DNA of 64,000 nt from Azolla caroliniana (Eukaryota > Plantae > Polypodiophyta). Each line of letters starts with the position of its first letter. The first letter of the stretch is position 1. A program made the translations under genes and the position numbers. Of the stretch, positions 18,262 through 62,868 are shown one piece after another. Location of the stretch: contig JBHGNT010000011.1 in the NCBI GenBank assembly GCA_043228905.1, positions 5,208,001 to 5,272,000 of the forward strand. Direction: 5' to 3'. The notes beneath the pieces were generated by a model. That model saw only the letters and a program-made list of their open reading frames with translations, did not search any database and had not been told where the DNA came from.

Positions 18262-18680
18262 TACTATTATCAGTATAATAATAGTAACGATAGCAGTAGG
18301 GACTACATTTGTAAATAGCTCATATAGTGTATAAATATAAATACACTTAGGGCAAAAAATAGTTAGATGAAGCAATGTGTGCAAAACATATAGAGTTGCT
18401 GTGAGCCTCTGTTGTATACAGAGTGTGTGACAGAGAAGAGAGAGTGCGTAAGTGAGAGGGAACAATGCCATAGTTGAGTGAAGCTTAGACATCAAGAGCC
18501 TTCCATGGTTGTTACACTCTATGTTGAATGAGAGTGTTACTGTCATGATATGGCAAGATTCGAACTCATGACCCTATGTTACATGGGTAGAGCTCTTGAC
18601 CATTAGACTTTACATTGTGAAGGATATTATTTTCATTTAAATTTTACTATAGAAAATTGATGTATATTCCATATTTCTCT

Positions 18681-22729: not shown

Positions 22730-25700
22730 TGTCGTGCCTTTTGGCTCCAGATCGTTGCGTGAGTCGGGTGGGAACCACTCAGGTTTTGGACTAGGAGAAA
22801 GAAGATGTGCACGAGTATTTTTTTTATTGGTTTATATTTTTCTTGTAAATAAAGTATTCACGCACTCTAAAAATGCATGATTTACCTTTTAATAAAGGCA
22901 GCACAAATAAAAGTCTTATACCTATTAAATCTATAGTTATAACACTTATGATAAGTTAATACAATGGTAAAGTTTTGGTTTATTTGTACATGGAGGTACA
23001 GGGTTCAAATCTTGCCCTATGCATGTAATAAATATTTTAATATTTTCTTTTATTTATAAATATGTACTTAAATCGGATATATTATTTTTACATTTTTCAT
23101 GTAGTGTGCGGACTACACTATGACACTCGCCCCCTCCGAACCCGCACATCCTCCGGTATGTGCCGAAGTTCACGATGTATGTTATTCGTCTTCATCCGTA
23201 GCACTCTCTGATTTTCCCCTTATGTCGACTACGAGTTGTACTACACTTTCTCCGCTTTCCGTATCACCGCGATCTTTGTCTGGTTTCTCCTTGATGTTGG
23301 TCTTGTCTAGGGTTACATAGGGTTCTTCGTCAGTCTGCTTCTTGAAAATCTTCACTCGTTTCCCTGCTATAGGCACCCGTAGTATTGTTCCATCCAACTC
23401 GCATAGTCGGTAAGTTTCGTTGTCGAAAACTTTCCGAACCTCGTATGACCCGAACCACCTTTTCGCGAACTTCCGTTGTCAAATCGGCTTTTGTTCCGGA
23501 ACCGCGCTTCATGTTGTCGGCGTGTTGCTTCTGCTATGTCTTCTGGTCTTCCCTCCAGTTGTCGTATCCGGACCGCTAGTAGTTCTTCTCGGCTCATCTC
23601 TTCCTTCCACGGCAACACTGTCCATGTCTCAATTGCGGTTTCCGTCGGCATTACCGGTGCTTGTCTGGTCATGAGTTCGGTCGGCATAAAACCGGTCACG
23701 GAACTATGTGTTGTACGATCTGCCCATAGTGCATACGGGAGCATTTGCGGCCAATCCTTCACCCTTCCATCGCATGCTTTGGCAAGTGCTTTGACGATCG
23801 GACTATGTCCTCGTTCGATTTTCCCGTTGGCCTCCGGATTGTATGCAGTTGTTAGTGTTAACCGAACTCCATGTTTGGTGAAGAATTCCCTAGCTTTATC
23901 AGAGTAGAGTTCTCCTCGATCTGCAATCACTTGTCCTACGCACCCGTACATGCAAAACACTTCTTCCAAAAGAAATTGGCTTACCGCAGAACACGTTTTC
24001 CTCCATAGTGCTCGACCTTCTACTTGGTTTGTGAGATCTTCCCGAGCTAACACCAAGTACTTCTTTTGTCTAATCCCGGTTGGCATGGCTACAATGTCGA
24101 CTATCCATTTGAAGTTGATTGTCAGTGAGAATGTCGGATGTAACTCATCTCGGTGTCGAACCCCAGAGTAGACTTGGCATTTCTCACAGCTTTCCGTGAA
24201 CTCCGTGACATCTTTGTACATATTCTTCCACCAATATCTTTGCTTGATCTTCACAAATGTTGCCCATGTTCCCCGATGTCCAGCCCAATCAGATTTGTGA
24301 AATTCGGACATTATCTGGTTTCGTTGCTCTTTTGTCCCGACTACTCGAAGTGGTATGCCATCCGGTCTTTTCGGCTCCCTCCATATTAATCCATTTTTCA
24401 AGAAGAACTTTCGAACTTGCCGCTTCTTACTTCGGATCTCGGCTCTCTTCTCTTTATTGTCCGATGATTCCTTGATTTCTTGTAGCACTTTCCCGATCAG
24501 CAAGCTTTCTCCCTCGTATTCTTCTTCCCAGAATTCTCGGATTACGTTCACCCGACATATGTGCTCTGAAGCAAAGTAGTCCTCGAAAACTTCTTCATTA
24601 TCGGATTCGGTTATGTCGTCTTTGAACCGCGCCCTTGATAGCATATCCGCTACCGCGTTGTCTTTTCCGAGATGTGTCGTACCTCCGGATTAAGTGGCTT
24701 AACATATACAATCCACCTTAGCATAGCCACATCCGGTATAGTACAACACCGCATCATCCCGAGTATCGGAAGACAATCCGTTTCGATCACTACTTCGGCT
24801 CCGATCAAATAATCTCGATCCGATTTGATTGCCGACACAACTCCCCATAATTCTCTTTTGACTTGTGCATACCCACGTTGCCTTTCGTTGAGAACCTTTG
24901 CTCCGAATCGGATCGGATATCGCGAACCATCTAAGTCGGCTTGATTGATGACCCATCCGATTCCGGTTGGACTTGTGTCAACCGTTACTATGATCGGTCG
25001 GTCATAGCTCGGCTTCTTAAGTGATTCCGACCTCCGTAGTGTTTTCTTAAGTTTCTTCATGGCTTTGGTATGTTCCGGTCTCCATTCAAACTTCTTACCC
25101 TTCCGCAACAAGTGATAGAGTGGGTCTGCAATATGTGCATAGTGCGGAATCCATATGTGATAGAATGCACATGCTCCAAGAAACCTTCGGACTTCGGATG
25201 GTGACTCGCATACTTCTTTCATAACTTGAATCACATCGATCTTGGTTGGTGACGGTCTTCGGCCGTAGGGCCCACATAGATGTTCGACTACCAATATTTC
25301 TTCTTGTCCGAATGCCGATTTCTCTTTGGAAAGTGTTAGGTGCACATCTTCTAACTTTCGTAGCACTTTCTCGAAATCGCGAATATGGTCGACTACGAAC
25401 TGTCGGCATCCCTGATCATCCATAGTCTCATCTTTTTCTTCCACCGCGCATCCTTTCATTGGAATGTCATCTAGGAATGGCATCGTTATCTTCGGAATGC
25501 AGTCTCGAAGCACCATGTTCATTGCATTCATCATATGTGCAACCGAGTTCGTTGCGCCTTGTGGCAGTGTGCAGATATGGACTAATCCTATCGGCGTTCG
25601 CATGGTAGTGATGTCTCGGCTCTCCACGACTAGTTGGAATTGGTCATACCCGGAGTATAGGTCTCCGATGGAGTATATTGCACGTCTGGCAAATGCTTCC

Positions 25701-37561: not shown

Positions 37562-38324
37562 TGTCGTGCCTTTCGGCGCTGGATCGTTGCGTGAATGGAG
37601 TGGAAATTACCGAGGTTTTGGACTAGGAGGAGGATAAATCAAAGGCAGATAAGAATATGAGATTGGAAGAGAAAGAATTAGACACCTCCTGAATCCCTCG
37701 AGTTTATTATATTAGATTAATCAATCCTTAGAATCCTAATAGTATAATGGAATAAATAGAAGAAAAATTGTGAAATACACATGTGTAATGTAATAGATCA
37801 ATATTTAGAAACCCAACAAATCATCAATCCCTACATTTTGCTTCCCCCATCCTTATATAGTGATGGGAGAGATGAAATATATCTTGCTACATGCAAGCAT
37901 GATGCTTTTTCTTTAACTCAAGTGTTCATGCACACTAGATGTGCATGATTAGTTTATTTTTATTTTTATCATACTTTTCTTTTAACTCAAGTGTTCATGC
38001 AGATAAGATATACATGAATAACTTTCTCTATCATGCCTTTTCTTTTACTCGAGTGTGAATGCATGAATAACCCTTTCTATCATGCTTAACTAGAATATTT
38101 ACGTGAGATAACTTTTGTCTAGTAGCTAGAATCTATAAGTAACTTTAAAACTCATAATGTGTTAGTACAATCATAAGGCTTGAAATTGTTAACATGGAGG
38201 TATATGGTTCAAATCTTGCCCTATGCATGTCACATAATTATTAGTATTTTCTCATATTTCTTTATTCTTAGTTAATCAGGTACTCCGTATATATTTCACG
38301 TAGTATACGAAGTATACTATGACA
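37562..38324 (-). repeat. 3' LTR of element C
   Basis: Direct repeat of 62121-62868; PPT adjacent at 38325-38336. Confidence 0.93.
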
Positions 38325-41300: not shown

Positions 41301-43215
41301 CCAGCCATAGTAACATGCTTCAATTGTAATAAAACCAGGCCCTACGCCACTCAATGCCCAACCAACAATCAAGGTAAAGCATTGGTCATGAACATGATTA
41401 TAGCCGATGTCCTACAGGTTACCACCTGAAGTCAGGCCCAACAGTCGCAATGGGAGATTCAGGATGAGGTCTGCCAAACCGCTAAGAAATGGATTGAAGT
41501 GGCAAATCAAGCGAACATTGATCGGATGCACACCAAAATGCAAGAGATCTGTCTGAGTCCATCACAACCCCCTCCTATTAAACAAACCAACAATGACTCG
41601 GTCTAGCAAGATCTCACCAGATGCCAAATCTCCATGCCCCTGCATAAACTGATGCAGCTACTTCCACGCTTCAAGGACACAGTCCAATCTCTCACCACCA
41701 GTGACGCGCCCACTACCTTGCCCGTACAGCTCATGACGCTGGAACCCAGACCTTCACTAATGGTTTCCTAGAATCCAACAGTCAAACTTGTCATAAAAGG
41801 CTGCGATGTCCATGGGTGCATTATCGACGGTGGATCAAGCGTTATTGTTATAATTGAGGCAACATGCCATGACCTGGGCATCACTCAATGGGAGCCATGT
41901 CTGTTTTGGCTTCAAATGGAGGATACACGATCGGTTCGACGGATAGGGCTAATCCGCAATCTTGATTTTATCCTCGGAGGGCATACCTTCACTATGTCCG
42001 CGGTGGTATTACGATTCGACGCTCTGGGTGCTTATCCGCGGTTACTTGGACGTCCGTGGCTGCAAACAACTAATATTAAGCAACATTGGGAATGCAACAT
42101 GATCTCTTTCCGTAGGGGGAAAACCAAAGTTCGGGTCATCATGGAAGAACGAATCACGATGCCTCCTAACACCAACCTGTTGTATGCAGAAGGAGTCCAT
42201 ATGCTCAATGGTCTCGCGGACGACGAGATGGAATCCTTTTTGGACGAGCACCCCACGATCGTTCCCCTCTTCGAAATCGACGTTCTCATGGCTGTAGAAC
42301 CATACTTAGCTAAACCCAGCACGACCGGGCAAGAAGCTCCATGCAAACTAGAACCAGAATCTATCAAGGAGCTACAACACGCCCGTGACGTGCTCGATCG
42401 TGAATTAGCAATCTTACAGTGGGTGAAGGCCTCGACACTAGAGGAAGTTAATCTTTGTTCTTCTACTGAGCCTCAAACACTTAAAATTGCAAAGGATCTT
42501 GCGCCCGAAGAATGATAAGCTCTAATAGGGTTGTTGACCGAATATCAGGATGTGTTCACATGGTCATACAGTGACATGAAGGGGTTAGACCCCCAATACT
42601 AGCAACACCAGGTCAACCTCCAAAAGAATGCACGACTGGTATAACAACGTTGCTACCAGATGAACCCGAATTACGCGGCAAAAGTAAACGAGGAAATCAA
42701 CAAAGTCCTATGGGTGGGGTTCATTCGGCCAGTCAAGAGGAAAATTTGGTTAAGCCCTATTGTGGTCGTACCGAAAAAGAACGGGCAAATCAGAGTGTGC
42801 ATCGACACTGTAAACTAAACGCGGCCACTATCACGGATGCATTTCCGCTTCCATTCACAGACGACGTCCTCGACACGGTCGTAGGCCATGATTGTTATAG
42901 CTTTTTAGATGGATTCAGTGGCTACAATCAGATCCGAATGCACCTTGACGACCAAGAGAAGATGATTTTTGTGATCGAATGGGGTGTGTTTGTCACGGTC
43001 GTAATGATGTTCGGCTTGAAAACGGAACCGACCACTTTCCGATGCATCATTACCGAAATTTTCGAGGAATATATTACAACGTTGATGCAAGTCTTCCTCG
43101 AAGATTTTACCCTGTACGGACAACAAATCGAGCACCTCAGACATCTCCGCTTGTGCCCTCAACAATGTCGACACACATGACTCAGCTTAAACCCGACCAA
43201 ATATGCTTTCTACGT

Positions 43216-44047
43216 TGTTGTAGTGTATTTCTTAGACTACGTGAAAACCGTATATTGTACTAGATTAAATAAATATGAAGAAATAGAAGAAAATATAAAA
43301 GTATATATTGCATGCATAAGGCAAGATTCAAACCTTGTAACTCCATGTAAACAATCCCCAAACCTTACCATTCTACTAACGTATCATAAGTGATATAAAT
43401 ATAGATTTAATAAGTATAAGACCTATATTTACGCCTATTTTTATTAAAAAACCAACCCATGCACAATTAGAGTGCGTAAAAACTTTATTTAGAAGAAAAA
43501 CGCAAACAAAGAAAAAGTTACTCATGCACGTCTAGAGTGCATGAGCACTATATTTAGAAATTAAAAGCGTGGTAGAAAAAGCCATTCAGGGACATCTAGT
43601 GTGCATGAACACTTTAGAAAAGCATTAGGCCATGTTTAGTCTCTTCCATCACTATATAAGAAAGAGAGAAAGATGTATATGGTTGTTGATTTTTCTTAGG
43701 GTTGATTAATATATTATATTCGTGGGATTCACGAATTTGCCATCTATTTCTCTCTTGCAATCTAAATTCATATTCTTTCCTAAATATTGATTAATATAAT
43801 ACTCGTGGGATTCACGAGGTTTTCGATTTCTCTTTTCCAATCTATTTCTATCGATTCTAATCTATTCCAAAGTATAATAAATAATAATAAAACTAAAAAA
43901 CTATATTCGTGGCATTCATGAATTTCTATCTCTCTTTCTTATAATCTACTCATAACTAGATTGCCTCAAATTCTTCCTCCTCCTAGTCCAAAACCCCAAT
44001 GGTTCCCATCTGACTCATGCAACGATCCGGCGCCGAAAGGCACTATA
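43216..44047 (+). mobile_element. Solo LTR of the B/C family inserted in the RT of element F
   Basis: Reverse-complement similarity to the LTRs at 22730 and 37562. 4-bp TSD ACGT (43212-43215, 44048-44051). The host frame AFY|VTSGALLGHIVS is restored on removal. Confidence 0.9.
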
Positions 44048-46502
44048 ACGTAACTAGCGGCGCCTTGCTCGGTCACATTGTCAGTCGCGATGGTATAACC
44101 ATGGATCCTGACAAGGTGCACGCTATACTAAATGCCTTGGCTCCAACCACAGCGAAACCTCTTAGTCGATTCTTGGGACAGATTTAGTGGCATAGTCGCA
44201 TGCTACGCTACCTAGCCGACTTCGCAACACCTCTGCATGCCACAGTACAATTCCATTCTGATGGATGGACCGGGAGGAAAAAGCTTATTGTTCCCTCAAA
44301 GTCATGCTCTATCACGCCCCAGTTGTGCAACCGCCGGATTGGTCGATGCCTTTCCACATGTTTGTGGATGCTTCCAACATAGCGATCAGAAGCACACTAA
44401 TGCAGAAAACACCACTGAATTGGTATCGTCTTGTCTATTACGCTAGTGGACGACTCTCCACGGCCGAAAAGAACTACTCCACGGAACGAGAAGCACTTGG
44501 CATGATTTATAACATGACTCAATTTTGCCATTACCTACTTGCTTGAAAATTCACTTTTTATGTCGATCATTCGACGCTTCTGTACCTCGTCAACAAGCAG
44601 GCATTAACCGATTGGCTAGCAGAGTGGATGCTCCTTCTACAAGAATTTGACTTCGATATCCAACATCGACCAGGAGTATAGCATGTGGTCGTAGACTACC
44701 TCAATCATCTCGAATCAGGGGAATCAACCGAAACGGAGTATGATGAATTACCTGACTCCAGCTTGTTCAGCCTCGACGCCACAACCCTTTTCGCTGATCA
44801 CGAGGACGAATGGATTATGGAGATGACACAATTCCTCAACACCAACTTTCCACCTGAACACTTAACACTAGACACCAAGAAACAATTGGTGGTCCAGACC
44901 TGAAATTTCTGTCTGTTCACCAACACTCTATATCATAAAGGCTTGGACGGCATTTGGCGATGCACACTACGACGATTCGAGAAAGATGTGGTTTGACGTG
45001 ACACCCATCACGGTATAGCTGGCGGCCACGATGCGGGTGATGCCACAACTCGAAAGATTTGGCAAAGCAGATTATGGTGGCCAACCACAAAAAAAGATGC
45101 TCACAAATTTTGTAAACGTTGCAATCTTTGTCAGCACATGGGCCAACCGAGCACAGAAGACCGGATGGCTCCCCAACCAATCCTTCCTTTAGAAACCTTT
45201 CAGAAATGGGGATTGGATTTCGTATGGCCATTGAAACCACCCCCAACCCAAACAGGCAACAAATATATAATCGTGGCTACTGACTACTGCACGAAATGGG
45301 TTGAAGCGAAAGCATTATGTGACAACACGGCCATGTCAACAACCAAATTCGTGGATGAATACTTGTGGTGTCGATTTGGCTGCCCAATCGAGCTCATGAG
45401 CAACCAAGGGGGCCACTTTCTCAACTGTTTTATCCATGAGTTAACCTCTCATTACGATGTGGTGCATAAGAAGAGCACACCCTACTACCCCCAAACCAAC
45501 GGACTGGCTGAGTCTACGAATAAGACCCTGCAGACGATTCTCAAGAAAATCGTGAACGAGCATCACATGGATTGGGATGATAAATTACACAGTGCACTAT
45601 GGGCCTACGACACCACATTCAAGACAAGCATCGGCTCCACGCCCTTTTGGATGTCTTTCGGCGTGGAAGTCGTGATGCCGATCGAATTTTAGGTTCCGAG
45701 CCTTCGAGTGCAAGTAATAGAATGATGGTCCGAACACAAACGACTAGAACAATTACTCGAACTTGGGGAAGAATGAATAGCCAGTTTGAACCAATTGGAA
45801 CAAGGCCAATGAAAAAGGAAAGCCTTTGTAGATTGCCATCACCGAGAAACCGAAAATCGAGATAAGCACACCGGTCATGGTGTTCCAAACACGGCTTGGG
45901 TCAATGCTAGGGAAACATTGATTTTGGTGAAGGGGACCATTCTGGATTGTCGACGATTTCAATAGAACGTTCCAGCTCGGCACATTGGCCGGGGAAATCT
46001 TAAAGAAGTGGGTCAACGGATTTCGATTGAAGCCATACCGTGGCCCGACACCTTCAAACCCCTTCGCCGAACAATAGCACGACTACGATCATGGTAGGTA
46101 GAACAGAGGATTTCGAGGGCAACACACCCCAATCACGGTAAACTCCCCTACCTACTTCCACAGTGTGTACCATAATTATGAAAAAAAGAAAAAAACTATT
46201 CAAAGTCCATGTATGCCATACGAGAAAAGCAAGTACTAACGGTTAACACGATGCGTGGTCTTAACTCCCAGTATGACCAGGAAGATTCTGAATCTAGGGC
46301 ATAAGGCCACATCTCGAGAACCGAGGCATATACAAAAAGAAAGACACCACAAACATAGCTCTCATTTCTCTATAAACGCTGAAACTCTCTCATTCTCGTT
46401 CAATCTCTCTCTTGCTCCTAGACTTGTTGCAACGAAGCGCTCTCTCGCTCTTTGACTACTCACTTCCATCCCTACTCGCCTTCTTGCTCTTCTGAGACAG
46501 CC

Positions 46503-48671
46503 ATGACGATCGAAGTATACAAAGAACTCCGCACTACTCTAAGCAGGCATAGTCTGGGAGGATACCTCTGCATCCTCAACAATGCTCCACACCCCAAAGC
46601 ATAGGCAATAGCCAAGAAGGTGCCTCTTGACACCATCACCAACAATAAGATCCGCTCAACGCTTAGTTTGTAGTGTGGGGGCGAACATGACATCGATGCT
46701 CCGCCACAACACATTGTGGAGCAATATTTTGGAGAATACTCCGCATTAGTAAAGGCCCATCGCACACACGGAGACCCCAAGCAATTCTTCGGAAATCTGG
46801 CCCATTTTTGTTTGGAGTATGGATGTATCACCGCCAATGCATATAGCATACCCAAGAAAAGGGCCAACTTAATCATAACGACATATCGAGGCGGAGTTGT
46901 CGATTGGGGTATGCTCACTGGGGAAGGAATTTGTGCCACGTTGGCCTCCTTCCAATCAGGTAAGTGTTTCCTCCCAGTATTGGCACAATATCTGGCTATA
47001 CTTTACCCTCCCCAAACCATGACCCAACAGAAGCGGGATCGCAACGAACCTACAGCCCCAAAACTCAACCCCGCCAAGAAACGCCGCCTACAACTGCGGA
47101 CTCCTTAGACAAGGACCGGCAACTAGTCAGTGTACCAAAGAAGATAGTTGTAGTGGTGACAGCTAAACCCCTCACTCTGACCGGTCAGATCGAACAAGGG
47201 CCACAATCATGGTGCCATTTTACAACACAACATGACTTACGAACTCATTGATTTCCTTGCCCACCTCCAAGTAGCTGCCGCGGCCCGCATGGCCCAAGAA
47301 CACGCCAAACATCAGATGGTGGAAAGGGTGTTGGCCAACGAAATGGAATCTGACGACGAGGCTAAGTTACAAAAAGTAGGACGGAAGAGAGCCACGAAGA
47401 AACATCGCACACTCATCGTGTTACCCAACCTCAATATGACGCTTGAAGAGGTTTACCGTGAGCTAGCAAGGACTACACGCATGGCTAAAGATATGGTCGT
47501 TAGTAGCAAAGAAGCACCGAAGCAAGCCAAGACCGCCACCGAATTGTGGCAAGCATCGGAACACCGCTTGGCCGCAGTAGAGGCACGACTCCAAACAAAA
47601 ACCGAATCCTCTTTGCTTTGCTTGCCCCCTCCCACCTCCCACCCACACAAAGCATCGTCCTAAACGAAACTATGAAGTTGTGTCAAGTTGGTCGATATAT
47701 CTACCCAAACAGAACCACCCAGCCCCTGCGCGATGCACGATGAAACAACCGAAACCGAGGGCGATCATAACACGGCTCTGTTCAAAGATGCTCTCCACCA
47801 ATATAAGGAAGAACTTATCATTCAAACAATCATCGCGGACAAAGCTAAGGAACGTTACGACACAACCAAAGCCGAGTTAGCCAAAATAAAGGAGCAAACA
47901 ACGAAAAGGGAAGCTGAGCTACAAAACCTGCTCCACAATCAGATGACCAAGCTCCATGAAACAAAAAACAACGCCACATCCGCCCTCAGGACTACACAAG
48001 ATATAGCGGCCGCACAAATAACATCTCTACACAAGGAGTTCGTGGAATTACAGGAGCACACGTCAGTTCCTACAAAAATTGGACCAAACCGAGCAGGAGC
48101 GATGCCAACTGGCGGACTCCTTGCACGAACATCAAATGAACTCAACGTTGGAACTCGAAAGCCAACGCGAGAAGTATTTGAAAGAATCAGCCGACAACAT
48201 GGATCGGCTCCTCCGCCGGTTTGACCAATTAATGGATGAGACAGAGGCAAGGATCTCCACCCTCAACACGTCGTGCGAGATCATCAAAGTCAAACTATAG
48301 CGGGAGGCGGAAGAAGCTAAATGAGAAACGATCACCCTCCAAGCCAAATATGACTTGCGAGAGGAACGAATCCACATCTTGGTGGTCAAACAATTGCAGA
48401 AGCTCAATCGGAAGGTCCAAGAAACTGTCACCAGTGGCTGGAAGGAATGGTTAGCTCAAGCAGTCGAACTCCAAGTTTTACGAGCTGACGCCGAAAACAG
48501 GAAGAAAGAAGGTCGCGGGTTCTATAAAATGGACGAAAATAGCATACAAATGGTACGAGAAGACCTCTCGAGGATTTCTAATCCTTGGCAAAAACGCACA
48601 CCACGACAATCGAAAGCCTCCTTGAGGAATTCAACGACGACCAGTTGATGTTGATGCTTGAAACCGAACGG
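46503..48671 (+). pseudogene. Additional ORF of element F downstream of pol (coiled-coil rich); continues at 56241-~56460
   Basis: A run of frameshifted E/K/Q/A-rich ORFs starting MTIEVYKELR. Preceded by TATAAA (46371) and a CT-rich leader. Confidence 0.7.
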
Positions 48672-48808
48672 TGTCGGGGTAGTTGTGGTTCGTGCGGCGA
48701 AGTCGCGGGGACTAAGGTTAAGGGGAGTTGAAGAAACTTAAGTTTAATAAGGCTTGTATGGTGATGATAGAATGTTTAAGGATAGTAAGATGAAGAGTTA
48801 CAAGTAAT

Positions 48809-48887
<79 letters not shown>

Positions 48888-49659
48888 GAGCATAGATAAA
48901 AGATAGAGACAATGTGTGATTCAAGAAAGAAGATTGAGACAAAGTATGATTCTAGAAAGAAGATTGAGACAAAGTATGATTCAAAGAACAAGAGTATATG
49001 ATATAAGCATGATGTATATTAAAAATATAATATTTTACCAACTTTACAATCCTTGATCGCAAGATGAATCTTCTCAATACCGACCCTTGATTTGAACCCT
49101 CGACCTCCACTTTGAAACGAGAGGTTCTCCACCCAACGAGCTAATCTTCTTTACTTGCTTCTATTATTTTCTCACTCTCTCTTCTTTGATTCCTTGATTC
49201 CCTTTTGTTTTCCTTTCCTCTCTTTTTATAAGTATTTCCATGCATATGGTAATGTCATGCATGTAATGCATGAGTTTCATCTTATGCATGATCGCCATTT
49301 GGCGCACATGCATTGCATGTGATGCATGATAGCCATCATGCTCATTTGAGCTCCCATGTATTGGGATAAGTATAATGATGGATATAACCCTAAAACAAAT
49401 AACCTAGCTTAGTGGTGTATGGTTTGTGCTTGATATACAAGGTTGAGGGTTCAAGTTCCTCAATTTTACTTAATACAATATATAGCTTCATTCTTATATC
49501 ATGAAGCACATTTATTACACACTTTTACAAATAAATAGCCTAGCCTAGTGGTATGTACATTGTACATCGTATATAAGGATGTGGGTTCAAGTCTCTCAAA
49601 TATTATTAAATACAACATTTAAGCTCATTTTTATATCGTGAAGCACATTCTTCACGACA
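48672..49659 (-). repeat. 3' LTR of element G, with (TG)n(AG)n microsatellite and a 136-bp tandem duplication
   Basis: TGTCG...CGACA; direct repeat of 55261-56236. Confidence 0.97.
49405..49597 (+). promoter_or_regulatory. Two tandem tRNA-like Pol III modules (A-box/B-box) in U3 of the element G LTR; same modules at 55982-56174
   Basis: TAGCTTAGTGG(49405)...GGTTCAAGTTC(49448) and TAGCCTAGTGG(49541)...GGTTCAAGTCT(49584). T-arm GAGGG-TTCAAGT-TCCTC. Confidence 0.7.
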
Positions 49660-52600
49660 CCCACCCCCTCTGAACTTGCACATTGGTTGTGCAGAGTTCA
49701 TCCAACACTTCTTCCGATTCTTTTAGTTCTTCTACTTCTTCATAAAATTCAGGCTCTAATGACTCCCTCCTTTTAAATATTTTAATCCTTTTTCCTGCAA
49801 TTGGGATACGAATTTCTGTCCCATCTAATTCATTGAGGAAATATGTGGCTTTATCTGTTATTTTCCTAACTTCATAAGGTCCAAACCATCTTTTTGCAAA
49901 CTTCCGAATAGTACTGTATTGATTATCTAGGCTATTATCATATACTAATACCCAATCTCCCTCTTGCATCTTTCTTGGTCGTATTCTTTTCATCTTGTCA
50001 AATCTGTCCTTATTCTTGATTCTTGCCTCTTTCAATCTAGTAGCTGCTTTTTCTATGTCTTCTATCCTTGATTGAAGTTGTCGTATTCGAACCGCAAGTA
50101 AATCTTCCCTACTCATTTCTGATTCCCAAGGCAACACAGCCCATGTAGTTATCTTTTCTTCAATTGGCATTATTGGCTTCTGTCCTGTGATTAATTCTGC
50201 AGGCATATATCCAGTAACAGTGCTGTGAGTTGTCCTATCAGCCCATAGTGCATAGGGTAAGGTTTTTGGCCAATCACTAACCCGTCCTCTACATGCCTTT
50301 GCCAAAGCTTTGACTATTGGCCCATGTCCCCTTTCTACCTTTCCATTAGCTTCTGGATTGTACGCCGTTGTCAAAGAAAGCCGAATTCCTATTTTGTCGA
50401 AAAAATCTTGAGCTTCCGCAGAATTGAGTTCTCCCCTATCTGCCACTATCTTCCCGATACATCCATATCTACAAACAATGTCCTCCAAGATGAATTGACA
50501 TACTCCTAATGTCCCTTTTGTTCTCAATGAACGACCTTCCACTTGATTTGTTAGATCTTCTCTAGCAAGAACCAAGTATCTCTTTTGTCCTACTCCAAGT
50601 GGCATTGTTACCAAATCTATCATCCACTTGTAATGCACCCCCGGTGAGTATGTTGGGTGTAATTCATCACAAAATTTTACATTTGAATAATATTGACAAG
50701 TGGGACAAGTTTCCACATACTTTTTTATTTGCTCATAGTATCGAGGCCACCAAAATCGTTCTTTAATCTTACTGAAAGTGGCCCACACTCCTCGATGACC
50801 AGCCCATTCTTTGTCATGCAGCTCTTTGATTATCTCCTTTCTTTGCCCTTCAGAACCTATTACTCTTTGCGGGTTTCCAGTCTTGGTTTTCGGATGTCGC
50901 CATAGATATCCTTCATACAGGAAGAACTTATGGGCTTTCTTGCGAAACTGTGCGAACTCTTTTCTAGATCGACCTTTGTACTTGTCAGGGGTTTGTAGGT
51001 ATTTTCCTATTTCCTTGAATTCATCTTCATACTCCTCTTCTAGAAACTGCATTCCTCCTTCCCGAGTAATGCTTGTGGTAAGTACTGTTTGTTCTTTGTC
51101 CTCATCGTCCGAGTCTGGAATCTCCTCTTCCTCATACCTTGCTCTTGATAACATATCTGCTACTGCATTTCTATTCCCAGAGATATGTCGAACTTCAGGG
51201 TTGATTGATCTAATATAGATACACCATCTTAACATGGCTTGATCTGGAATATCACAATTAGCTATGATACCCAGAATAGGCAAACAATCTGTTTCTATTA
51301 TTACTTCAGCACCAATTAAGTAATCTCTGTCTGTCTTTACAGCTGTTACTATCCCCCATAGCTCTCTTTTCACCTGTGCATATTTTCTTTGTCGACCACT
51401 AAGAACCTTTGCCCCGAATCGGACTGGATACCTTTCTTCCCTATCTTGTTGGCTTATCACCCATCCAATTCCAATGGGACTAGAGTCTACTGTGAGATAT
51501 ATGGGCCGGGTGTAGTCTGGTTGCTTCAATGGTGGAGCTTGTGCCAAGTAGTACTTCAATTTCTTCATTGCCTCTGAATGCTCTTCACTCCATTCAAATG
51601 TCTCTCCTTTTCTTAGGAGTCTATATAAAGGTTCAGATAAATGGGCATAATGCGGAATCCATTTACAGTAAAAAACACATACCCCCAGAAATCTTCGTAC
51701 TTCTGAGATGGATGTACATTCCTCTTGCATATTTTGAATTGCATTGACTTTGGTTGGGGATGGCTTTCTCCCATACGGGCCACACATATGACCAACTATT
51801 AATATCTCTTTTGCCCCAAATATTGACTTCGCCCCTGATAAGGTCAAATGCACTTCTTCCATCCTTGATAGCACCTTCTCACAATCCTTGATATGATCAG
51901 CAACGAATTGACGGCAACCACTTTCGTCCAATTCCTCATTCTTCTCTTCCTCCTTGCATCCCTTAATTGGAACATCATCTAGAAAAGGCATTGTAATATG
52001 AGGAATAAAATCACGAAGTACCTTGTTCATTCCATTCATCATATGCGCCACTGAGTTGGTCGCTCCTTGCGGCAAGGTGCACATCCGTACTAACCCTATA
52101 GGTGTCTTGATAGAAGTTATATCTCGACTTTTGATAGCAAGTTGAAATTGATCATACCCGGAATAAAGGTCTCCCATTGAATATATAGCTTTTCCTGCAA
52201 ACATCTCAGCAAACTCATCCACAATTGGCCCTACTCCCGAGTTTCGGATTGTTACCTTATTCACGGGTTGCATATCTTGGATAAATCGGAGTCGCCCATC
52301 TTTCTTTAACACAGTGAACCATCGACTCGAGTAAGGAGCGTTCGATGGTTCCAAGATACCCATCCTTATCTTTTCTTTCAAAAGTTCTAATAGTTGAGGG
52401 ATTCTAGCCCTAGGCATGGGTATTGGCTTAAAGTTCCATGGAATATGAGGGATAGTGAATATAACCATGGGCTCCACAATTTCTGGATCCACACACCCTA
52501 TTTCTTCCGGTTGGAATGCGAACGCCTTTCCATGCCTTTTTAACATCTCCCTGAACTGCTTTTCTTCAGCGGGTAATAGGAAGTCACCCCCTCCTATTTT

Positions 52601-52903
52601 CATCCCTTGTATTGTTTCCGGAGTAAACACATGTCCTACCTTTCGTGGGTCTCTGATCATTGGCTCTGTGGCTGCTTCTTTGATTGCCTTTTCACTATCC
52701 CCTGGAAGTGGAGCAGCAATAGGACGAACCTTCTTCTCCACTGTCTTGTATTTTGTTAGTACATATGCTTCATGATCCTTTCGAGCAACTTCTTCAATGA
52801 CCTCATACATCTTGATTGAATGGACAGGAACTTGGATTTCGTTGTCTTCTTCCATTGCTTCCAAATGAGTTATTGTATCTTCAAAACTTAATTCTTCAAA
52901 CAT
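49652..52903 (-). CDS. Gypsy pol (RT, RNase H, integrase); frame is open back to 53110, probably reached by -1 frameshift
   Basis: 1083-aa ORF: DLYSGYDQF, LPQG, FLDD, VDSS, GHRG...CPTC, YNPEANGKVERGH, WFGPY. No chromodomain seen. Confidence 0.95.
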   Translation of the reverse strand: MFEELSFEDTITHLEAMEEDNEIQVPVHSIKMYEVIEEVARKDHEAYVLTKYKTVEKKVRPIAAPLPGDSEKAIKEAATEPMIRDPRKVGHVFTPETIQGMKIGGGDFLLPAEEKQFREMLKRHGKAFAFQPEEIGCVDPEIVEPMVIFTIPHIPWNFKPIPMPRARIPQLLELLKEKIRMGILEPSNAPYSSRWFTVLKKDGRLRFIQDMQPVNKVTIRNSGVGPIVDEFAEMFAGKAIYSMGDLYSGYDQFQLAIKSRDITSIKTPIGLVRMCTLPQGATNSVAHMMNGMNKVLRDFIPHITMPFLDDVPIKGCKEEEKNEELDESGCRQFVADHIKDCEKVLSRMEEVHLTLSGAKSIFGAKEILIVGHMCGPYGRKPSPTKVNAIQNMQEECTSISEVRRFLGVCVFYCKWIPHYAHLSEPLYRLLRKGETFEWSEEHSEAMKKLKYYLAQAPPLKQPDYTRPIYLTVDSSPIGIGWVISQQDREERYPVRFGAKVLSGRQRKYAQVKRELWGIVTAVKTDRDYLIGAEVIIETDCLPILGIIANCDIPDQAMLRWCIYIRSINPEVRHISGNRNAVADMLSRARYEEEEIPDSDDEDKEQTVLTTSITREGGMQFLEEEYEDEFKEIGKYLQTPDKYKGRSRKEFAQFRKKAHKFFLYEGYLWRHPKTKTGNPQRVIGSEGQRKEIIKELHDKEWAGHRGVWATFSKIKERFWWPRYYEQIKKYVETCPTCQYYSNVKFCDELHPTYSPGVHYKWMIDLVTMPLGVGQKRYLVLAREDLTNQVEGRSLRTKGTLGVCQFILEDIVCRYGCIGKIVADRGELNSAEAQDFFDKIGIRLSLTTAYNPEANGKVERGHGPIVKALAKACRGRVSDWPKTLPYALWADRTTHSTVTGYMPAELITGQKPIMPIEEKITTWAVLPWESEMSREDLLAVRIRQLQSRIEDIEKAATRLKEARIKNKDRFDKMKRIRPRKMQEGDWVLVYDNSLDNQYSTIRKFAKRWFGPYEVRKITDKATYFLNELDGTEIRIPIAGKRIKIFKRRESLEPEFYEEVEELKESEEVLDELCTTNVQVQRGWVS

Positions 52904-53106
52904 ATCCTGAATTTCTTCATCATCATCTATTAATCCAGAACACTTAAAGTACTCGAAAGCATTTTGTATTTTATTATTATTTACTTTTAGTATAAAAGTA
53001 GCACCATTAGATGAGATTGTACAAGGAATATCTTTATTTACATTATTATTTATGGGGTTTTCTTTTATGCTCGGGCTATCACAGCCCCTACCTGTAAAAG
53101 CCCTAT

Positions 53107-55221
53107 CTAAAAATCCTGGGAAAACTCTTCATCCATCTCTTGAATTGGATGTTCCCTCAAGCATTCTTTGTTTCTTTCATGGTTGGGCCTCACGGTTAAG
53201 AATTGGACAGTCTTTCTTCCATCTTGACTCTTGATTCTCGCGAAAGCCGAACCATCATCAATAACCTTTGTTTCCATCCTCACTGCGGTGATGTAGGGCT
53301 GGCCAAGGATGACGGGGTAGGTTGATCGATCCTGTACAAAGAAATTTTGATTCACCGAGACATCACCAATTGTTACCTTCACACTAGGACATGCTCCGAA
53401 TAGATCCTCCGTAGTTTCTGTGGCAGCTCTTATTTTCCACCCATGATTCTTGTCGATCGGCCATCGTCCTCGAGCGTAAAATTCCGATGACATCATGTTA
53501 ATCTCTGATCCATGATCGATCAAAGCAATACATGGAATTTGCTGCTCCCCAATTTTTGCAGGTGCCTCCGTTGTTGCTCGAGCCCAATGGTCCCTTGTAT
53601 AGTGACTCCTATCCCCTTCATGGACGCCAACATCATTCTGGTTTTTTACACTTGCAGCATTGATGGTGCCACCATACAAATCTTGGAGTGTTGCTGCACA
53701 CCCTCCCGTAATTTCCTCCGTCACCTGTCTCTTCCTTCTAATAATATCTATGATAACTTCATGAAATTCTTTCTTTGCTATACCCAACACTTCTCTTAAA
53801 GTAAATTCTACCTTACTATTTAATATTCTTGTTTCTAGTACCTTTTTTATATCCGTCGTTGTTTCTATGTCTGAGGCAAGCTTGAAAGATGGGCCTGTCT
53901 TTCCTTTTACTTTATCAGCTTCCTTCGGCTCAATAGCACCCTTTTCCATCTCCCTTCTCTTTTGTTCTCGTGTCTCATGTCTCTTTGTCGGATCAGCTTC
54001 CTCAGCTCTCTTCCGCTTCTCTTCCACTAGCACATCTTGTGCATTCACTTGGGCGAATGCTGATAGCGCGTCTACTGGATCATTCCATCCAGTGAAGTTT
54101 CGTATTTCATCTCCCGCTCTTTTTAATTCATCCACTCGAACCTTCCCTTTTCTTGCATAGTCCATCACATCTTGCCAAAAGCCAGATCCACCATATGAGT
54201 CTTCTACGCGCAATCCTAAGGTTGCCACGGATTGTATCGCTTGAGTCGTTTCTCTCTCGGCATCTTCCATTAGCCTTTTCATTCCTCCTCGCCCGAAGTT
54301 GAGTTGAAGTGGTTGTCGAGTCTCAGTTGAGTGAATCTTGCCATCTTGATAGTAGATTTTATTATGATTAAGAGCATCCCTATGCTCTTGACAATCTTTC
54401 TTCTGGTGGTCGATACTATCACACCACATACACCTTCGGACCATTCCACCTCCCTGCCTTGATGAAGTCGAGCTTTGTCCCGATTCTAGCTTCGTCACTT
54501 TGATCGACAAGTCTTTCATGCCTTTCACTAATTCGTGTAAGAGTGATTCTTCTACTTTCTTTTCTCCCGACTCGTTCCCCGTTTCTTCATCATTTCTGTC
54601 GGGCAACTCCATAAACCATAACTTTCTTTTGCAGAAATGGGCGCACGCCCTTTTCACCTCCTCCCAATCTTCGGTAAGTCCACTTGGACTATTCTGATCT
54701 TCTAAAAGCATTCCCAAGTCCTTCCTGTCTTTAATATTAGTAGCTTGTAGAAACAATATTACTTTATCTGGCATTATTATATTTCTATCTCTAACACTTA
54801 GTTGCTCAAATCTTTCAGAAAACTCTTTTAATACTTCCAAAACACTTAAATGTTTATTAGACTCTACCCAATCCATGAAAGCTCGCCTTGTCATCCTTGA
54901 CATATCGTTGAGGTTGTATTCATTGAGTAATGCCCTTTCGAATGTTGTCCATGTCTGATTCTCCCTTTGGAGCTCTTGGATCCTCTCTTGTAGCCCAATC
55001 GCAGCGACTCGACTAAAGCTATTAATTTTTGTAGCTTCGTCGACACCGCGTTTAAGCATTTCTTCATTATAAATCTTCAGAAATCTTGTTAAATTTATAC
55101 CTTCGAAGATTCCTACTCGTGCGAGAATATTGTCGACGGCTTTGTCGATGCTTGCCATCATCCCTTGTTCCCGCATCACTCGTTCCATCATCGTACACAT
55201 AAGCCTCATTTGCTCCTCCAT
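53107..55221 (-). CDS. Gypsy gag-protease polyprotein
   Basis: 704-aa ORF with Zn knuckle CMWCDSIDHQKKDC and aspartic protease LIDHGSEIN...VILGQPY. Confidence 0.93.
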   Translation of the reverse strand: MEEQMRLMCTMMERVMREQGMMASIDKAVDNILARVGIFEGINLTRFLKIYNEEMLKRGVDEATKINSFSRVAAIGLQERIQELQRENQTWTTFERALLNEYNLNDMSRMTRRAFMDWVESNKHLSVLEVLKEFSERFEQLSVRDRNIIMPDKVILFLQATNIKDRKDLGMLLEDQNSPSGLTEDWEEVKRACAHFCKRKLWFMELPDRNDEETGNESGEKKVEESLLHELVKGMKDLSIKVTKLESGQSSTSSRQGGGMVRRCMWCDSIDHQKKDCQEHRDALNHNKIYYQDGKIHSTETRQPLQLNFGRGGMKRLMEDAERETTQAIQSVATLGLRVEDSYGGSGFWQDVMDYARKGKVRVDELKRAGDEIRNFTGWNDPVDALSAFAQVNAQDVLVEEKRKRAEEADPTKRHETREQKRREMEKGAIEPKEADKVKGKTGPSFKLASDIETTTDIKKVLETRILNSKVEFTLREVLGIAKKEFHEVIIDIIRRKRQVTEEITGGCAATLQDLYGGTINAASVKNQNDVGVHEGDRSHYTRDHWARATTEAPAKIGEQQIPCIALIDHGSEINMMSSEFYARGRWPIDKNHGWKIRAATETTEDLFGACPSVKVTIGDVSVNQNFFVQDRSTYPVILGQPYITAVRMETKVIDDGSAFARIKSQDGRKTVQFLTVRPNHERNKECLREHPIQEMDEEFSQDF

Positions 55222-55238
55222 TTCTCCTCGTCGCCGCT

Positions 55239-55256
55239 TTCACGTCGGGTTCACCA
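55239..55256 (-). other. Primer-binding site complementary to the tRNA-Trp 3' end
   Basis: TGGTGAACCCGACGTGAA, 4 nt from the 5' LTR; same sequence at 31326-31343. tRNA identity is from recall of plant tRNA-Trp (...TTCACGTCGGGTTCACCA). Confidence 0.85.
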
Positions 55257-55260
55257 AATG

Positions 55261-55399
55261 TGTCGGGGTAGTTGTGGTTCGTGCGGCGAAGTCGCGGGGA
55301 CTAAGGTTAAGGGGAGTTGAAGAAACTTAAGTTTAATAAGGCTTGTATGGTGATGATAGAATGTTTAAGGATAGTAAGATGAAGAGTTACAAGTAATGT

Positions 55400-55464
<65 letters not shown>

Positions 55465-56236
55465 GAGCATAGATAAAAGATAGAGACAATGTGTGATTCA
55501 AGAAAGAAGATTGAGACAAAGTATGATTCTAGAAAGAAGATTGAGACAAAGTATGATTCAAAGAACAAGAGTATATGATATAAGCATGATGTATATTAAA
55601 AATATAATATTTTACCAACTTTACAATCCTTGATCGCAAGATGAATCTTCTCAATACCGACCCTTGATTTGAACCCTCGACCTCCACTTTGAAACGAGAG
55701 GTTCTCCACCCAACGAGCTAATCTTCTTTACTTGCTTCTATTATTTTCTCACTCTCTCTTCTTTGATTCCTTGATTCCCTTTTGTTTTCCTTTCCTCTCT
55801 TTTTATAAGTATTTCCATGCATATGGTAATGTCATGCATGTAATGCATGAGTTTCATCTTATGCATGATCGCCATTTGGCGCACATGCATTGCATGTGAT
55901 GCATGATAGCCATCATGCTCATTTGAGCTCCCATGTATTGGGATAAGTATAATGATGGATATAACCCTAAAACAAATAACCTAGCTTAGTGGTGTATGGT
56001 TTGTGCTTGATATACAAGGTTGAGGGTTCAAGTTCCTCAATTTTACTTAATACAATATATAGCTTCATTCTTATATCATGAAGCACATTTATTACACACT
56101 TTTACAAATAAATAGCCTAGCCTAGTGGTATGTACATTGTACATCGTATATAAGGATGTGGGTTCAAGTCTCTCAAATATTATTAAATACAACATTTAAG
56201 CTCATTTTTATATCGTGAAGCACATTCTTCACGACA
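55261..56236 (-). repeat. 5' LTR of element G
   Basis: Direct repeat of 48672-49659. Confidence 0.97.
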
Positions 56237-56742
56237 ACGGGCCTTCACAAGAAACGACATGGCAACTAGACCAAGAAGAGGAAGCCCCCACCCCACCAGC
56301 AACGAGGATAGATATCGACCACGAGCTTGATTTCTCGGCCAAGCAGACACCACAGAACGAGCCGCAACCTACTATCTCGGCAGCTACGATATAGGAAACA
56401 ACCGTACACCCAACCTCCGAAGGCATCCTCGACATCTTGACCGAGGGATGAGTCTACCATAAAAATTTTGCGGATCTCTTTTTTCAATTATGGTGGGTTC
56501 GACGTGCGCATGCATTGTCGCACGGGCGTGCCAAGTGTTGTCTGTGGGACAGATCGGTAATTTGGGTATGAAACGAATTTGGATGTAAGTGAAGTAAGCA
56601 ACCGTAATAGGGAAGGTCGTGAAGATAATGCAACCATGAAACATGGAACCAAAATGAGTAAAGACTGAAGCACGCCAAGCGGGGAAAGCAAACTATAAAA
56701 CGTGAAGTAGAAACGTAACAAAGTAGAGGACAGAAGAGAGAA

Positions 56743-57394
56743 TGTTAGGAAATAGGTCCCTCCGGATGGGAAGTAAGAAGAATAGTGTTGATGAACAACT
56801 TGGCCGAGGCCGAATCCGGATGTGGAGTACCCGGCAATGGAAGACCCGGTGAGAACCGGATGACGAGTACCCGGCATGGAAGACCCTGTGAGAACCGGAT
56901 GTTGCAGGCCCAGTGAGACCTCTCATCGGATGGAAGGGACATATATGTAAATATGTTCCAGAGAGCCCACTGGGGCTATATTTGTAAATAGCCCGAAAGT
57001 CATATTAGTATAAATATGACCTAGGGCAAACTTAATAATCACGATGATAGAGTTATTGGTGTAACCTCTGTACAGTGCGTAAGAGAGAGAGAGAGAGAGA
57101 GAGCAACATACAGAGATTGTGTCTCTGTTGTAACCGCCGCAAGGCGAAGATTGTGAGCAAGATGTCGTTGCCTCTATGGTCCCTGTTGTATTACTTTACA
57201 GAGTGATAGTTTGGAGTCTGTGGACTCCCGTGGTTTTTCCCTCTCAGGGTTTTCCACGTTAATATCCTGTGTATTCTCTTTCTGTTTTTTGTCGACTTAC
57301 CTCCATTCCCATTTAGTCTGTGGTTTTTTTTTACTGTCATCAAGTGATCTACGCTTCGGTTGTTGCCGGAGATTAATCTGCGTATTCCACGATA
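56743..57394 (+). mobile_element. Solo LTR (probably Copia) inserted in the 3' LTR of element F
   Basis: Absent from the F 5' LTR. 5-bp TSD GAGAA (56738-56742, 57395-57399). Starts TGTTAGG. Contains a ~40-bp tandem repeat at 56825-56901 and a Tnt1-like GTGGTTTTTCC...GGGTTTTCCACGTT motif. Confidence 0.88.
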
Positions 57395-62120: not shown

Positions 62121-62868
62121 CTTGTCGGCATTGGATCATTGCGTGAGTCAGGCGGGAACTACCAAGGTTTTGGACTAAGAGGAGGAGAATTCAAAGGCAG
62201 ATAAGAATATGAGATTGGAAGAGAAAGAATTAGACACCTCATGAATCCCTCAAGTGTGTTATATTAGATTAATCAATCCTTAGAATCCTAATAGTATAAT
62301 GGAATAGATAGAAGAAAAACCATGAAATACATGTGTGTAATGTAATAGATTAATATTTAGAAACCCAAAAAATCATCAATCCCTACATTTTGCTTCCCCC
62401 ATCCTTATATAGTGATGGGAGAGATAAAATATATATTGCTACATGCAAGCATGATGCTTTTCTCTAACTCGAGTGTTCATGCACACTAGATGTGCATGAT
62501 TAGTTTTTTTTATTTTTATCATACTTTTCTTTTAACTCAAGTGTTCATGCACATTAGATGTACATGAATAACTTTCTCTATCACGCCTTTTCTTTTACTC
62601 GAGTGTGTATGCATGAATAACCCTTTCTATCATGCTTAACTAGAATATTTACGTGGAATAACTTTTGTCTAACTAGAATCTATAACTTTAATACTCATAA
62701 TGTGTTAGTACAATGGTGAGGCATGAAATTGTTAACATGGAGGTACAGGGTTCAAATCCTGCCCTATGCATGTAAACATAATTATTAGTATTTTCTCATA
62801 TTTCTTTATACTTAGTTAATCGGGTACTCCTTATATATTTCATGTAGTATACGAAGTATACTATGACA
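62121..62868 (-). repeat. 5' LTR of element C (U5 tip and part of the PBS deleted)
   Basis: Direct repeat of 37562-38324. Confidence 0.92.

Follow-up and report, generated by a model that had tools for sequence, protein, structure and literature searches.

tRNA-type A/B-box modules in the LTRs of Azolla Gypsy retrotransposons as putative TFIIIC docking sites

The window, the whole stretch of 64,000 nucleotides of Azolla caroliniana DNA analysed here, is a nest of LTR retrotransposons. An earlier note on its sequence described short tRNA-like units with A- and B-boxes, which are RNA polymerase III (Pol III) promoter boxes, in the LTRs of a Gypsy element, here called G. We found that G also carries a TATA-like box of the RNA polymerase II (Pol II) type. 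The locus raises the question of whether these units are of use to the elements that carry them and, if so, whether they would act as DNA or through an RNA product.

Element G and the modules of the window

Element G is a young, intact Gypsy element of the Phygy type on the minus strand. Its 3' LTR (48672..49659, 988 bp) and 5' LTR (55261..56236, 976 bp) differ by a single substitution, within a microsatellite, and 12 gap columns, and this near identity indicated that the insertion of G is very young. G is bounded by a 4-bp target-site duplication (TSD) of the NCGN type, ACGG on the plus strand (left copy 48668..48671, right copy 56237..56240). A polypurine tract (49660..49671, minus strand) adjoins the 3' LTR, and the primer-binding site (55240..55257, minus strand), which is common to many related loci, is presumably of the tRNA-Trp type. 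The element is 7.6 kb long and lacks a chromodomain, and its coding frames span 5.6 kb and fill the interior. They comprise an open gag-protease frame of 710 aa with DUF4100 (53107..55239, minus strand) and an open pol frame of 1158 aa with reverse transcriptase (RT), RNase H and integrase (49652..53128, minus strand), the latter shifted into the -1 frame with respect to gag. The overlap of the two frames (53107-53128, minus strand) contains G GAT TTT directly before the gag stop, which is likely a ribosomal frameshift site with a heptamer of a type known from plant viruses. The closest named proteins were those of the liverwort Riccia sorocarpa, with a best identity of about 70%. G lies within a plus-strand Gypsy element (39242-57731; LTRs ~39242-39783 and 56535-57731), which itself lies within element C.

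Three tRNA-like modules were found at the same places in both LTRs of G, as had been described, and all three are identical between the two LTRs. Module A (49405..49467, plus strand, in the 3' LTR; 55982..56038, plus strand, in the 5' LTR) has an A-box at 49405-49415, a B-box at 49448-49458, a 5-bp T-arm and TTTT at 49464-49467. It is antisense to G and lies upstream of the TATA-like box. Module B (49541..49597 and 56118..56174, plus strand), with an A-box at 49541-49551 and a B-box at 49584-49594, is the outer copy of a 136-bp duplication. The proposed tandem of two antisense copies with a period of 136 bp (49405-49457 and 49541-49593, plus strand; 55982-56034 and 56118-56170 in the 5' LTR) was confirmed, and the pair proved to be a duplication of the first 136 bases of the LTR, in which a degenerate version of the terminus is also present. 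Module 3 (minus strand, 49143-49089 in the 3' LTR and 55666..55720 in the 5' LTR) is the divergent sense unit that had been described; it has an A/B spacing of 45, lies downstream of the TATA-like box and has an unpaired T-stem. A run of five T follows about 70 nt downstream of it. Contig joints that step back 266-268 bases suggest that some copies carry further units.

The TATA-like box of the 3' LTR (49224..49232, minus strand) lies between the divergent modules and is likely to serve as the Pol II core promoter of G. Two outward modules and one sense module thus bracket this box and point away from it. Upstream of it, eight CATGCA/TGCATG motifs form one block (49239..49328), which we take to be RY-like; RY motifs are presumably sites for B3 factors, and the block could link the LTR to ABA or desiccation signals. 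The same motifs are also dense in the LTRs of three related loci (L036, L018 and L021; L numbers denote the loci sampled in the next section).

Outward modules were also present in other LTRs of the window, namely in the 3' LTR of the related element B (22957..23011, plus strand), in the 3' LTR of the related element C (38163..38215, plus strand, with a damaged A-box), in the 5' LTR of C (62706..62758, plus strand) and in a solo B/C-type LTR (43325..43378, minus strand). A further one (18557..18610, minus strand) lies near the start of a putative LTR (from ~18525) of an unrelated Gypsy element, presumably chromovirus/Tcn1-like, whose RT is 32% identical to that of G. The modules that had been reported from the B/C-type and Tcn1-like LTRs are therefore real, and they were recovered by a profile. 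This profile was trained on 14 modules taken only from loci outside the window, two of the training families being the same as G and B/C. It gave 11 matches in the window, all 11 within LTRs, which make up about 13% of it, compared to 0-1 matches in shuffled sequence. A strict scan for A- and B-boxes at a spacing of 35-60, with 40 shuffles as the control, found 10 pairs at 8 distinct B-boxes (shuffle mean 0.175, maximum 1); seven of the eight sites have the tRNA-type spacing of 43-45 and lie within LTRs.

Several other features of the window were recorded. An element at 28540-31350 (minus strand) shares its primer site with G and is flanked by LTR-like ends; its two frames, of 300 and 284 aa, gave no Pfam match, and its LTR also adjoins the internal region of element B. 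A decayed module was suspected in this LTR (28540-29150), which was alignable to L012 and L017 over the first 33 bases only. Three tandem 429-bp copies at 1157-2419, 99.5-99.8% identical, each hold a B-box-like word without an A-box partner. The idea that modules serve as integration targets found no support: by inspection of this small sample, no nested insertion in the window sits at a module.

Recurrence of the modules among related elements

From an integrase alignment, the 80 best among 149 metagenome loci were retrieved; one more locus brought the sample to 81. The LTR start was found in 63 of these, and the 49 with at least 300 bases of LTR were used. Together with G, B and C of the window they formed a sample of 52 LTRs in 24 clusters, some of them truncated; for loci without a detected primer site, up to 1100 bases were scanned as LTR. 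With leave-family-out training and a threshold of at least 18 bits, modules were detected in 21 of the 52 LTRs, compared to none of 260 shuffles and none of the 52 adjacent coding stretches. Since the match in L064 sat within an inverted stretch of another LTR nested there, it was excluded, so that 20 of 52 LTRs and 10 of 24 clusters carried a module of their own and 14 clusters lacked one. The proposal that tRNA-type modules occur across autonomous Gypsy families was borne out by these counts. Additional modules were present in three 5' LTRs, those of L011, L017 and L025, as well as in an LTR-like insert that L041 contains. A chance origin of the A/B pairs was ruled out by the shuffle and coding controls.

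In a tree of integrases (52 rows and two Riccia proteins), carriers fell into about ten separate groups among non-carriers. Sister lineages differed (L023 versus L036, L060 versus L033), the module being absent from one and present in the other, and L071 has the core promoter of L033 in common and no detected module. These observations indicated that the modules are dispensable. Blocks of U3 were common to distant integrase clades (L036/L001, 72% over 152 bases; L027/L035, 73% over 274 bases), which suggests that the cassettes likely move by recombination. It follows that there were fewer than ten independent captures and that the module groups are not fully independent of one another. Among L001/L036, L027/L035, L033/L071 and L002/L003, two patterns were seen: LTR interiors common to, or exchanged between, lineages whose integrases are distant, and identical integrases with LTRs that diverge after 312 bases.

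The earlier note had described the modules as outward-facing units at U3. This held as a trend only. Merging likely homologues left 16 groups, of which 12 were directed away from the TATA-like box and 4 were directed toward it (p = 0.08), and without one of the merges the count was 12 of 17 (p = 0.14); inward-facing and downstream modules also occur, so that modules lie on one side of the box or on both. Sense-orientation units were present in L007, L014, L003 and L011 as well as in G. The same bracket, in which the TATA-like box has outward modules upstream and a single sense unit downstream, was found in G/L001 and in L007/L014, whose LTRs belong to different clusters, and module-bearing units are duplicated in both G and L003. 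Compared to non-carriers, the LTRs of carriers were more AT-rich (p = 0.02) and held more CATGCA motifs (p = 0.01).

Two scans of viral contigs found no relative, and contigs of prokaryote genomes gave one locus. This locus, L081, encodes a Phygy-type integrase that is 57% identical to that of G; its contig is recorded as part of a genome assembly of an uncultured cyanobacterium, and it is likely plant contamination.

Selection on the boxes and loss of the tRNA fold

The positions tested for constraint were the invariant box bases T8, G10, G53, T54, T55, C56, A58 and C61. In 11 orthologous module pairs, both partners of which had to pass the same box-favouring profile and for which no homologous sampled family member was missed, differences were found at 6 of 88 invariant positions, compared to 25 of 77 degenerate box positions and 65 of 231 spacer positions (p ~2e-5). 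The base-matched expectation at the invariant sites was 24.9 differences (Poisson p = 6e-6). The invariant bases therefore change about four times less than expected, and degenerate positions within these boxes change as often as the spacer does. When the whole aligned boxes of the 11 pairs were counted, 32 of 213 positions differed versus 75 of the 301 spacer positions (p = 0.008). Common ancestry among module groups bears on all of these counts. For the G family itself, three DNA runs supplied contigs that were placed on 49370-49610. Of 40 box sites, one was variable, versus 35 of the 164 sites outside the boxes (p = 0.004); among G/C sites the counts were 0 of 18 and 17 of 49. These are contigs rather than reads, and their placing may favour conserved anchors. 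The sole variable box site is the one at which the copy in the window departs from the canonical C. Damaged B-boxes were seen in some high-coverage or young elements (copy A of G at C61, copy B of L001, L053 and L030). Taken together, these comparisons provide good evidence that the promoter box bases have been retained by selection.

The constraint did not extend to the tRNA fold. ARAGORN found no tRNA gene in the window or in the 44 of the 81 loci that were submitted, and the Rfam tRNA model scored copy A at 15.4 bits (cut-off 29), matching model positions 8-63 with the acceptor stem outside the match. Rfam returned no tRNA or other credible family for the whole window and nine module-bearing loci. 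The modules are thus not tRNA genes, in agreement with the earlier note. Across 21 module groups, the number of Watson-Crick pairs stood at the level of shuffled arms for the T-stem (14 vs 16.8), the anticodon stem (29 vs 26.8), the acceptor stem (43 vs 37.7) and the D-stem (26 vs 25.8), and a conserved cloverleaf was rejected on this basis. Folding z-scores of five modules ranged from -1.6 to +0.9, no better than shuffles, and neither a conserved hairpin nor conserved downstream sequence was found across the 21 groups. Structure therefore lends no support to the suggestion that the modules yield decoy small RNAs. T4 followed the B-box in 11 of 21 groups versus 7.6 expected from local shuffles (p = 0.07), A4 did so in 2 of 21, and CAA preceded the module in 6 of 21.

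Two features ascribed to copy A of G were revised. Its T-arm, described as perfect, contains a G-T pair at G53-C61 in this copy, and nearly all other family copies have C there. The anticodon-like arm of this copy is not conserved in L001, a close relative. At 49433 most other family copies have G, which would give TGG at the anticodon-like position; this and the shape of the A-box suggest, on our assumption, a tRNA-Pro source. Variants at 49448 (G-to-A) and 49458 (C-to-T) occurred at matching frequencies in the three runs (4/6%, 10/8% and 38/36%) and could represent a compensatory T-stem pair, a hint of RNA structure.

tRNA ancestry appears to be still visible outside the profile, where 19 of 21 groups had A at the register of position 38 and 15 of 21 had T at that of position 33. 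In the orthologous pairs, these A38/T33-type positions differed in 4 of 21 cases and were no better kept than the spacer. The A38 register and an AGGT variable-loop motif are retained with all stems lost, and they are possibly an extended B-box. When modules A and 3 were compared by BLAST with phage records, the matches were weak throughout (E 2-7). Many of them fell on the T-arm of annotated tRNAs of several types, and they single out no source tRNA. Sporadic SINE insertions with their own TSDs, the case named earlier as contrary to a common role, were not seen. As in tRNA-derived SINEs, there is a head with A- and B-boxes; no SINE A-tail was found at the modules, and flanking repeats (within 40 nt upstream and 60 nt downstream) were present in 6 of 21 groups, a number at chance level for a TSD (4.1 +/- 1.7 expected). 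Sister LTRs were unalignable, being too diverged to reveal an empty insertion site.

Possible roles of the modules and known systems

The earlier note had presented the modules as a new system without a known equivalent. This claim was not upheld, as tRNA-like sequence in LTRs is known from Helenus elements (PMC10886601) and A/B-box cassettes are known from the U3 of foamy viruses (PMC3993851), as far as the available text of these papers goes. Helenus TRIMs (TRIMp3) have tRNA-like A/B sequences in their LTRs, kept mainly at the boxes and unlikely to give a working tRNA, as in G; in the available text, 'not a few' Repbase LTRs are said to contain part of a tRNA, only TRIMs are followed up, a SINE-insertion origin is proposed, and the one plant case is from Selaginella (Kojima 2024, PMC10886601). 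In contrast to G, which is 7.6 kb long, codes for proteins and has a Pol II-type TATA-like box, the Helenus elements described there are non-coding TRIMs of 311-1263 bp that are thought to be transcribed by Pol III, and the three examples have a single sense copy per LTR rather than three modules, two of them antisense. G therefore shares the A/B boxes of Helenus; it is not a short non-coding TRIM, and its boxes are not placed to transcribe the element, two of the three modules being antisense and the sense module being soon followed by a T-run. Cassandra TRIMs likewise carry a Pol III promoter in plant LTRs, which drives their own RNA; as described in the same source, that promoter is 5S-derived and of type 1 and the elements are non-autonomous, whereas the modules of G are of the tRNA type in an autonomous element (PMC10886601). 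Foamy viruses resemble G in having A/B-box units in the U3 of an autonomous retroelement with a Pol II promoter, and their Pol III miRNA cassettes are reported as deletable in culture (Kincaid et al. 2014, PMC3993851). These viruses are reported to make structured pri-miRNA hairpins with terminators; the G-type modules, known from DNA sequence, have no conserved hairpin.

Other systems resemble the modules in the way the boxes are used. At tDNA and TFIIIC barriers and ETC sites, the available texts attribute function to recognition of the boxes by TFIIIC rather than to an RNA product (PMC13578239, PMC11346459, PMC9540200). The modules have the conserved B-box, and the A-box, that mark such sites; the described sites are host loci of yeast and animals, whereas the modules lie inside an autonomous LTR. 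The U2 snRNA gene of Leishmania is controlled by an upstream tRNA-like element reduced to boxes A and B, which also yields a short RNA; there, as far as the source text goes, the controlled gene is a host gene transcribed by Pol III, unlike the Pol II-type promoter of G (PMC4950102). By its NCGN TSD and its compact, chromodomain-less build with frames that fill the interior, G agrees with the Phygy clade of non-chromovirus Ty3/gypsy elements, a class set by description, and the available part of that description makes no mention of A/B-box modules in LTRs (Neumann et al. 2019, PMC6317226). The open-access literature gave no report of conserved tRNA-type boxes in the LTRs of autonomous plant Gypsy elements, nor of a TFIIIC barrier as a cis-element inside an autonomous LTR. 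What is new are the autonomous hosts, the multi-copy and mostly antisense layout and the evidence of selection; tRNA-like LTR sequence was already known from Helenus.

It is probable that the boxes are bound and selected, a step common to two readings, one in which the modules dock TFIIIC and one in which they make short Pol III transcripts. The modules could instead be passengers, old insertions of tRNAs or SINE heads in AT-rich LTRs that are copied along and no longer function. Their patchy presence (10 of 24 clusters), mixed orientation, damaged boxes in some active lineages and unconserved terminators are consistent with this, yet passengers would not be expected to show the roughly fourfold deficit of changes at invariant bases next to degenerate positions at the spacer rate, or the invariant G/C box sites of the G family, and the chance-level TSDs and missing tail point away from SINE insertion; we therefore regard this explanation as unlikely. 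Equally improbable, in our judgement, is that short Pol III transcripts (~70-130 nt, mostly antisense to U3) benefit the element as decoys, regulators or small-RNA precursors. The two boxes have been retained together with their spacing, which a transcribing type 2 promoter requires; in copy A, a CAA directly precedes the module, the T-arm has 5 bp and TTTT follows at once, features that are kept in L001; the matching variants at 49448 and 49458 perhaps form a compensatory pair; and foamy-virus LTRs, in the text available, offer a precedent (PMC3993851). Against this, stems, hairpins and downstream sequence are not conserved across the 21 groups, the enrichment of terminators is not significant, and CAA precedes only 6 of the 21.

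A further possibility is a promoter like that of Helenus or Cassandra, with Pol III starting within the LTR to produce either the genomic RNA or the transcript of a small parasite that has the same LTR. The sense units, Module 3 and those of four other loci, have the orientation of the Helenus examples. Most modules are antisense, however, G has a TATA-like box as well as 5.6 kb covered by two open frames, the five-T run lies soon after Module 3, and autonomous partners must use Pol II according to the available text of Kojima (PMC10886601), so that this is the least credible of the explanations considered. Finally, another plant factor that acts on Pol II may bind the motifs, their likeness to tRNA reflecting origin only. 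The reach of conservation to AGGT and A38, beyond the classic boxes, and the tendency of carriers toward AT-rich, CATGCA-rich U3 types would fit such a factor, but two boxes at a fixed 43-45 bp with exact tRNA invariants are the signature of TFIIIC, and we consider this very unlikely.

The explanation that we prefer, tentatively and with somewhat less than even confidence, is that the modules are putative TFIIIC docking sites that would keep the Pol II promoter of the LTR open or block its silencing. The invariant bases are kept and no stem is kept, which argues for a role at the level of DNA rather than RNA, and the T-runs and the direction of most modules, away from the element, indicate that Pol III is not the maker of the 6-7 kb genomic RNA; both points favour TFIIIC docking. 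TFIIIC reads two boxes at tRNA spacing, and yeast offers documented cases of TFIIIC and tDNA barriers, as set out in the available text of a 2026 review (PMC13578239). In the proposed mechanism, A/B units would have been captured from tRNA or SINE heads, and TFIIIC, perhaps with TFIIIB, would bind the kept boxes. Sites flanking the LTR promoter could then keep it accessible inside heterochromatin, to the benefit of the element, and the units would have spread between families by LTR recombination, with short Pol III transcripts as a possible by-product. A stronger form of this proposal holds that at least two unrelated Gypsy lineages repeatedly captured tRNA promoters and keep them around the Pol II promoter as insulators bound by TFIIIC. 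These would pass between families as exchangeable U3 cassettes and form an anti-silencing device and the first tDNA-type barrier of plants; this form is doubtful on the present sequence comparisons.

The modules could inflate the annotation of SINEs and tRNA pseudogenes in genomes that carry such elements. Sister families with and without modules, present in high copy numbers, are natural controls. If the preferred explanation is true, these families would allow a direct test of tRNA-type barriers in plants, where tDNA barriers are stated to be undescribed in the available text of the 2026 review (PMC13578239), and would widen the picture drawn from Helenus and Cassandra, in which, in the available text, autonomous partners are not expected to share such promoters (PMC10886601). 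If TFIIIC binds the modules, these retrotransposons would use the Pol III machinery of the host purely as a chromatin tool for a Pol II promoter.
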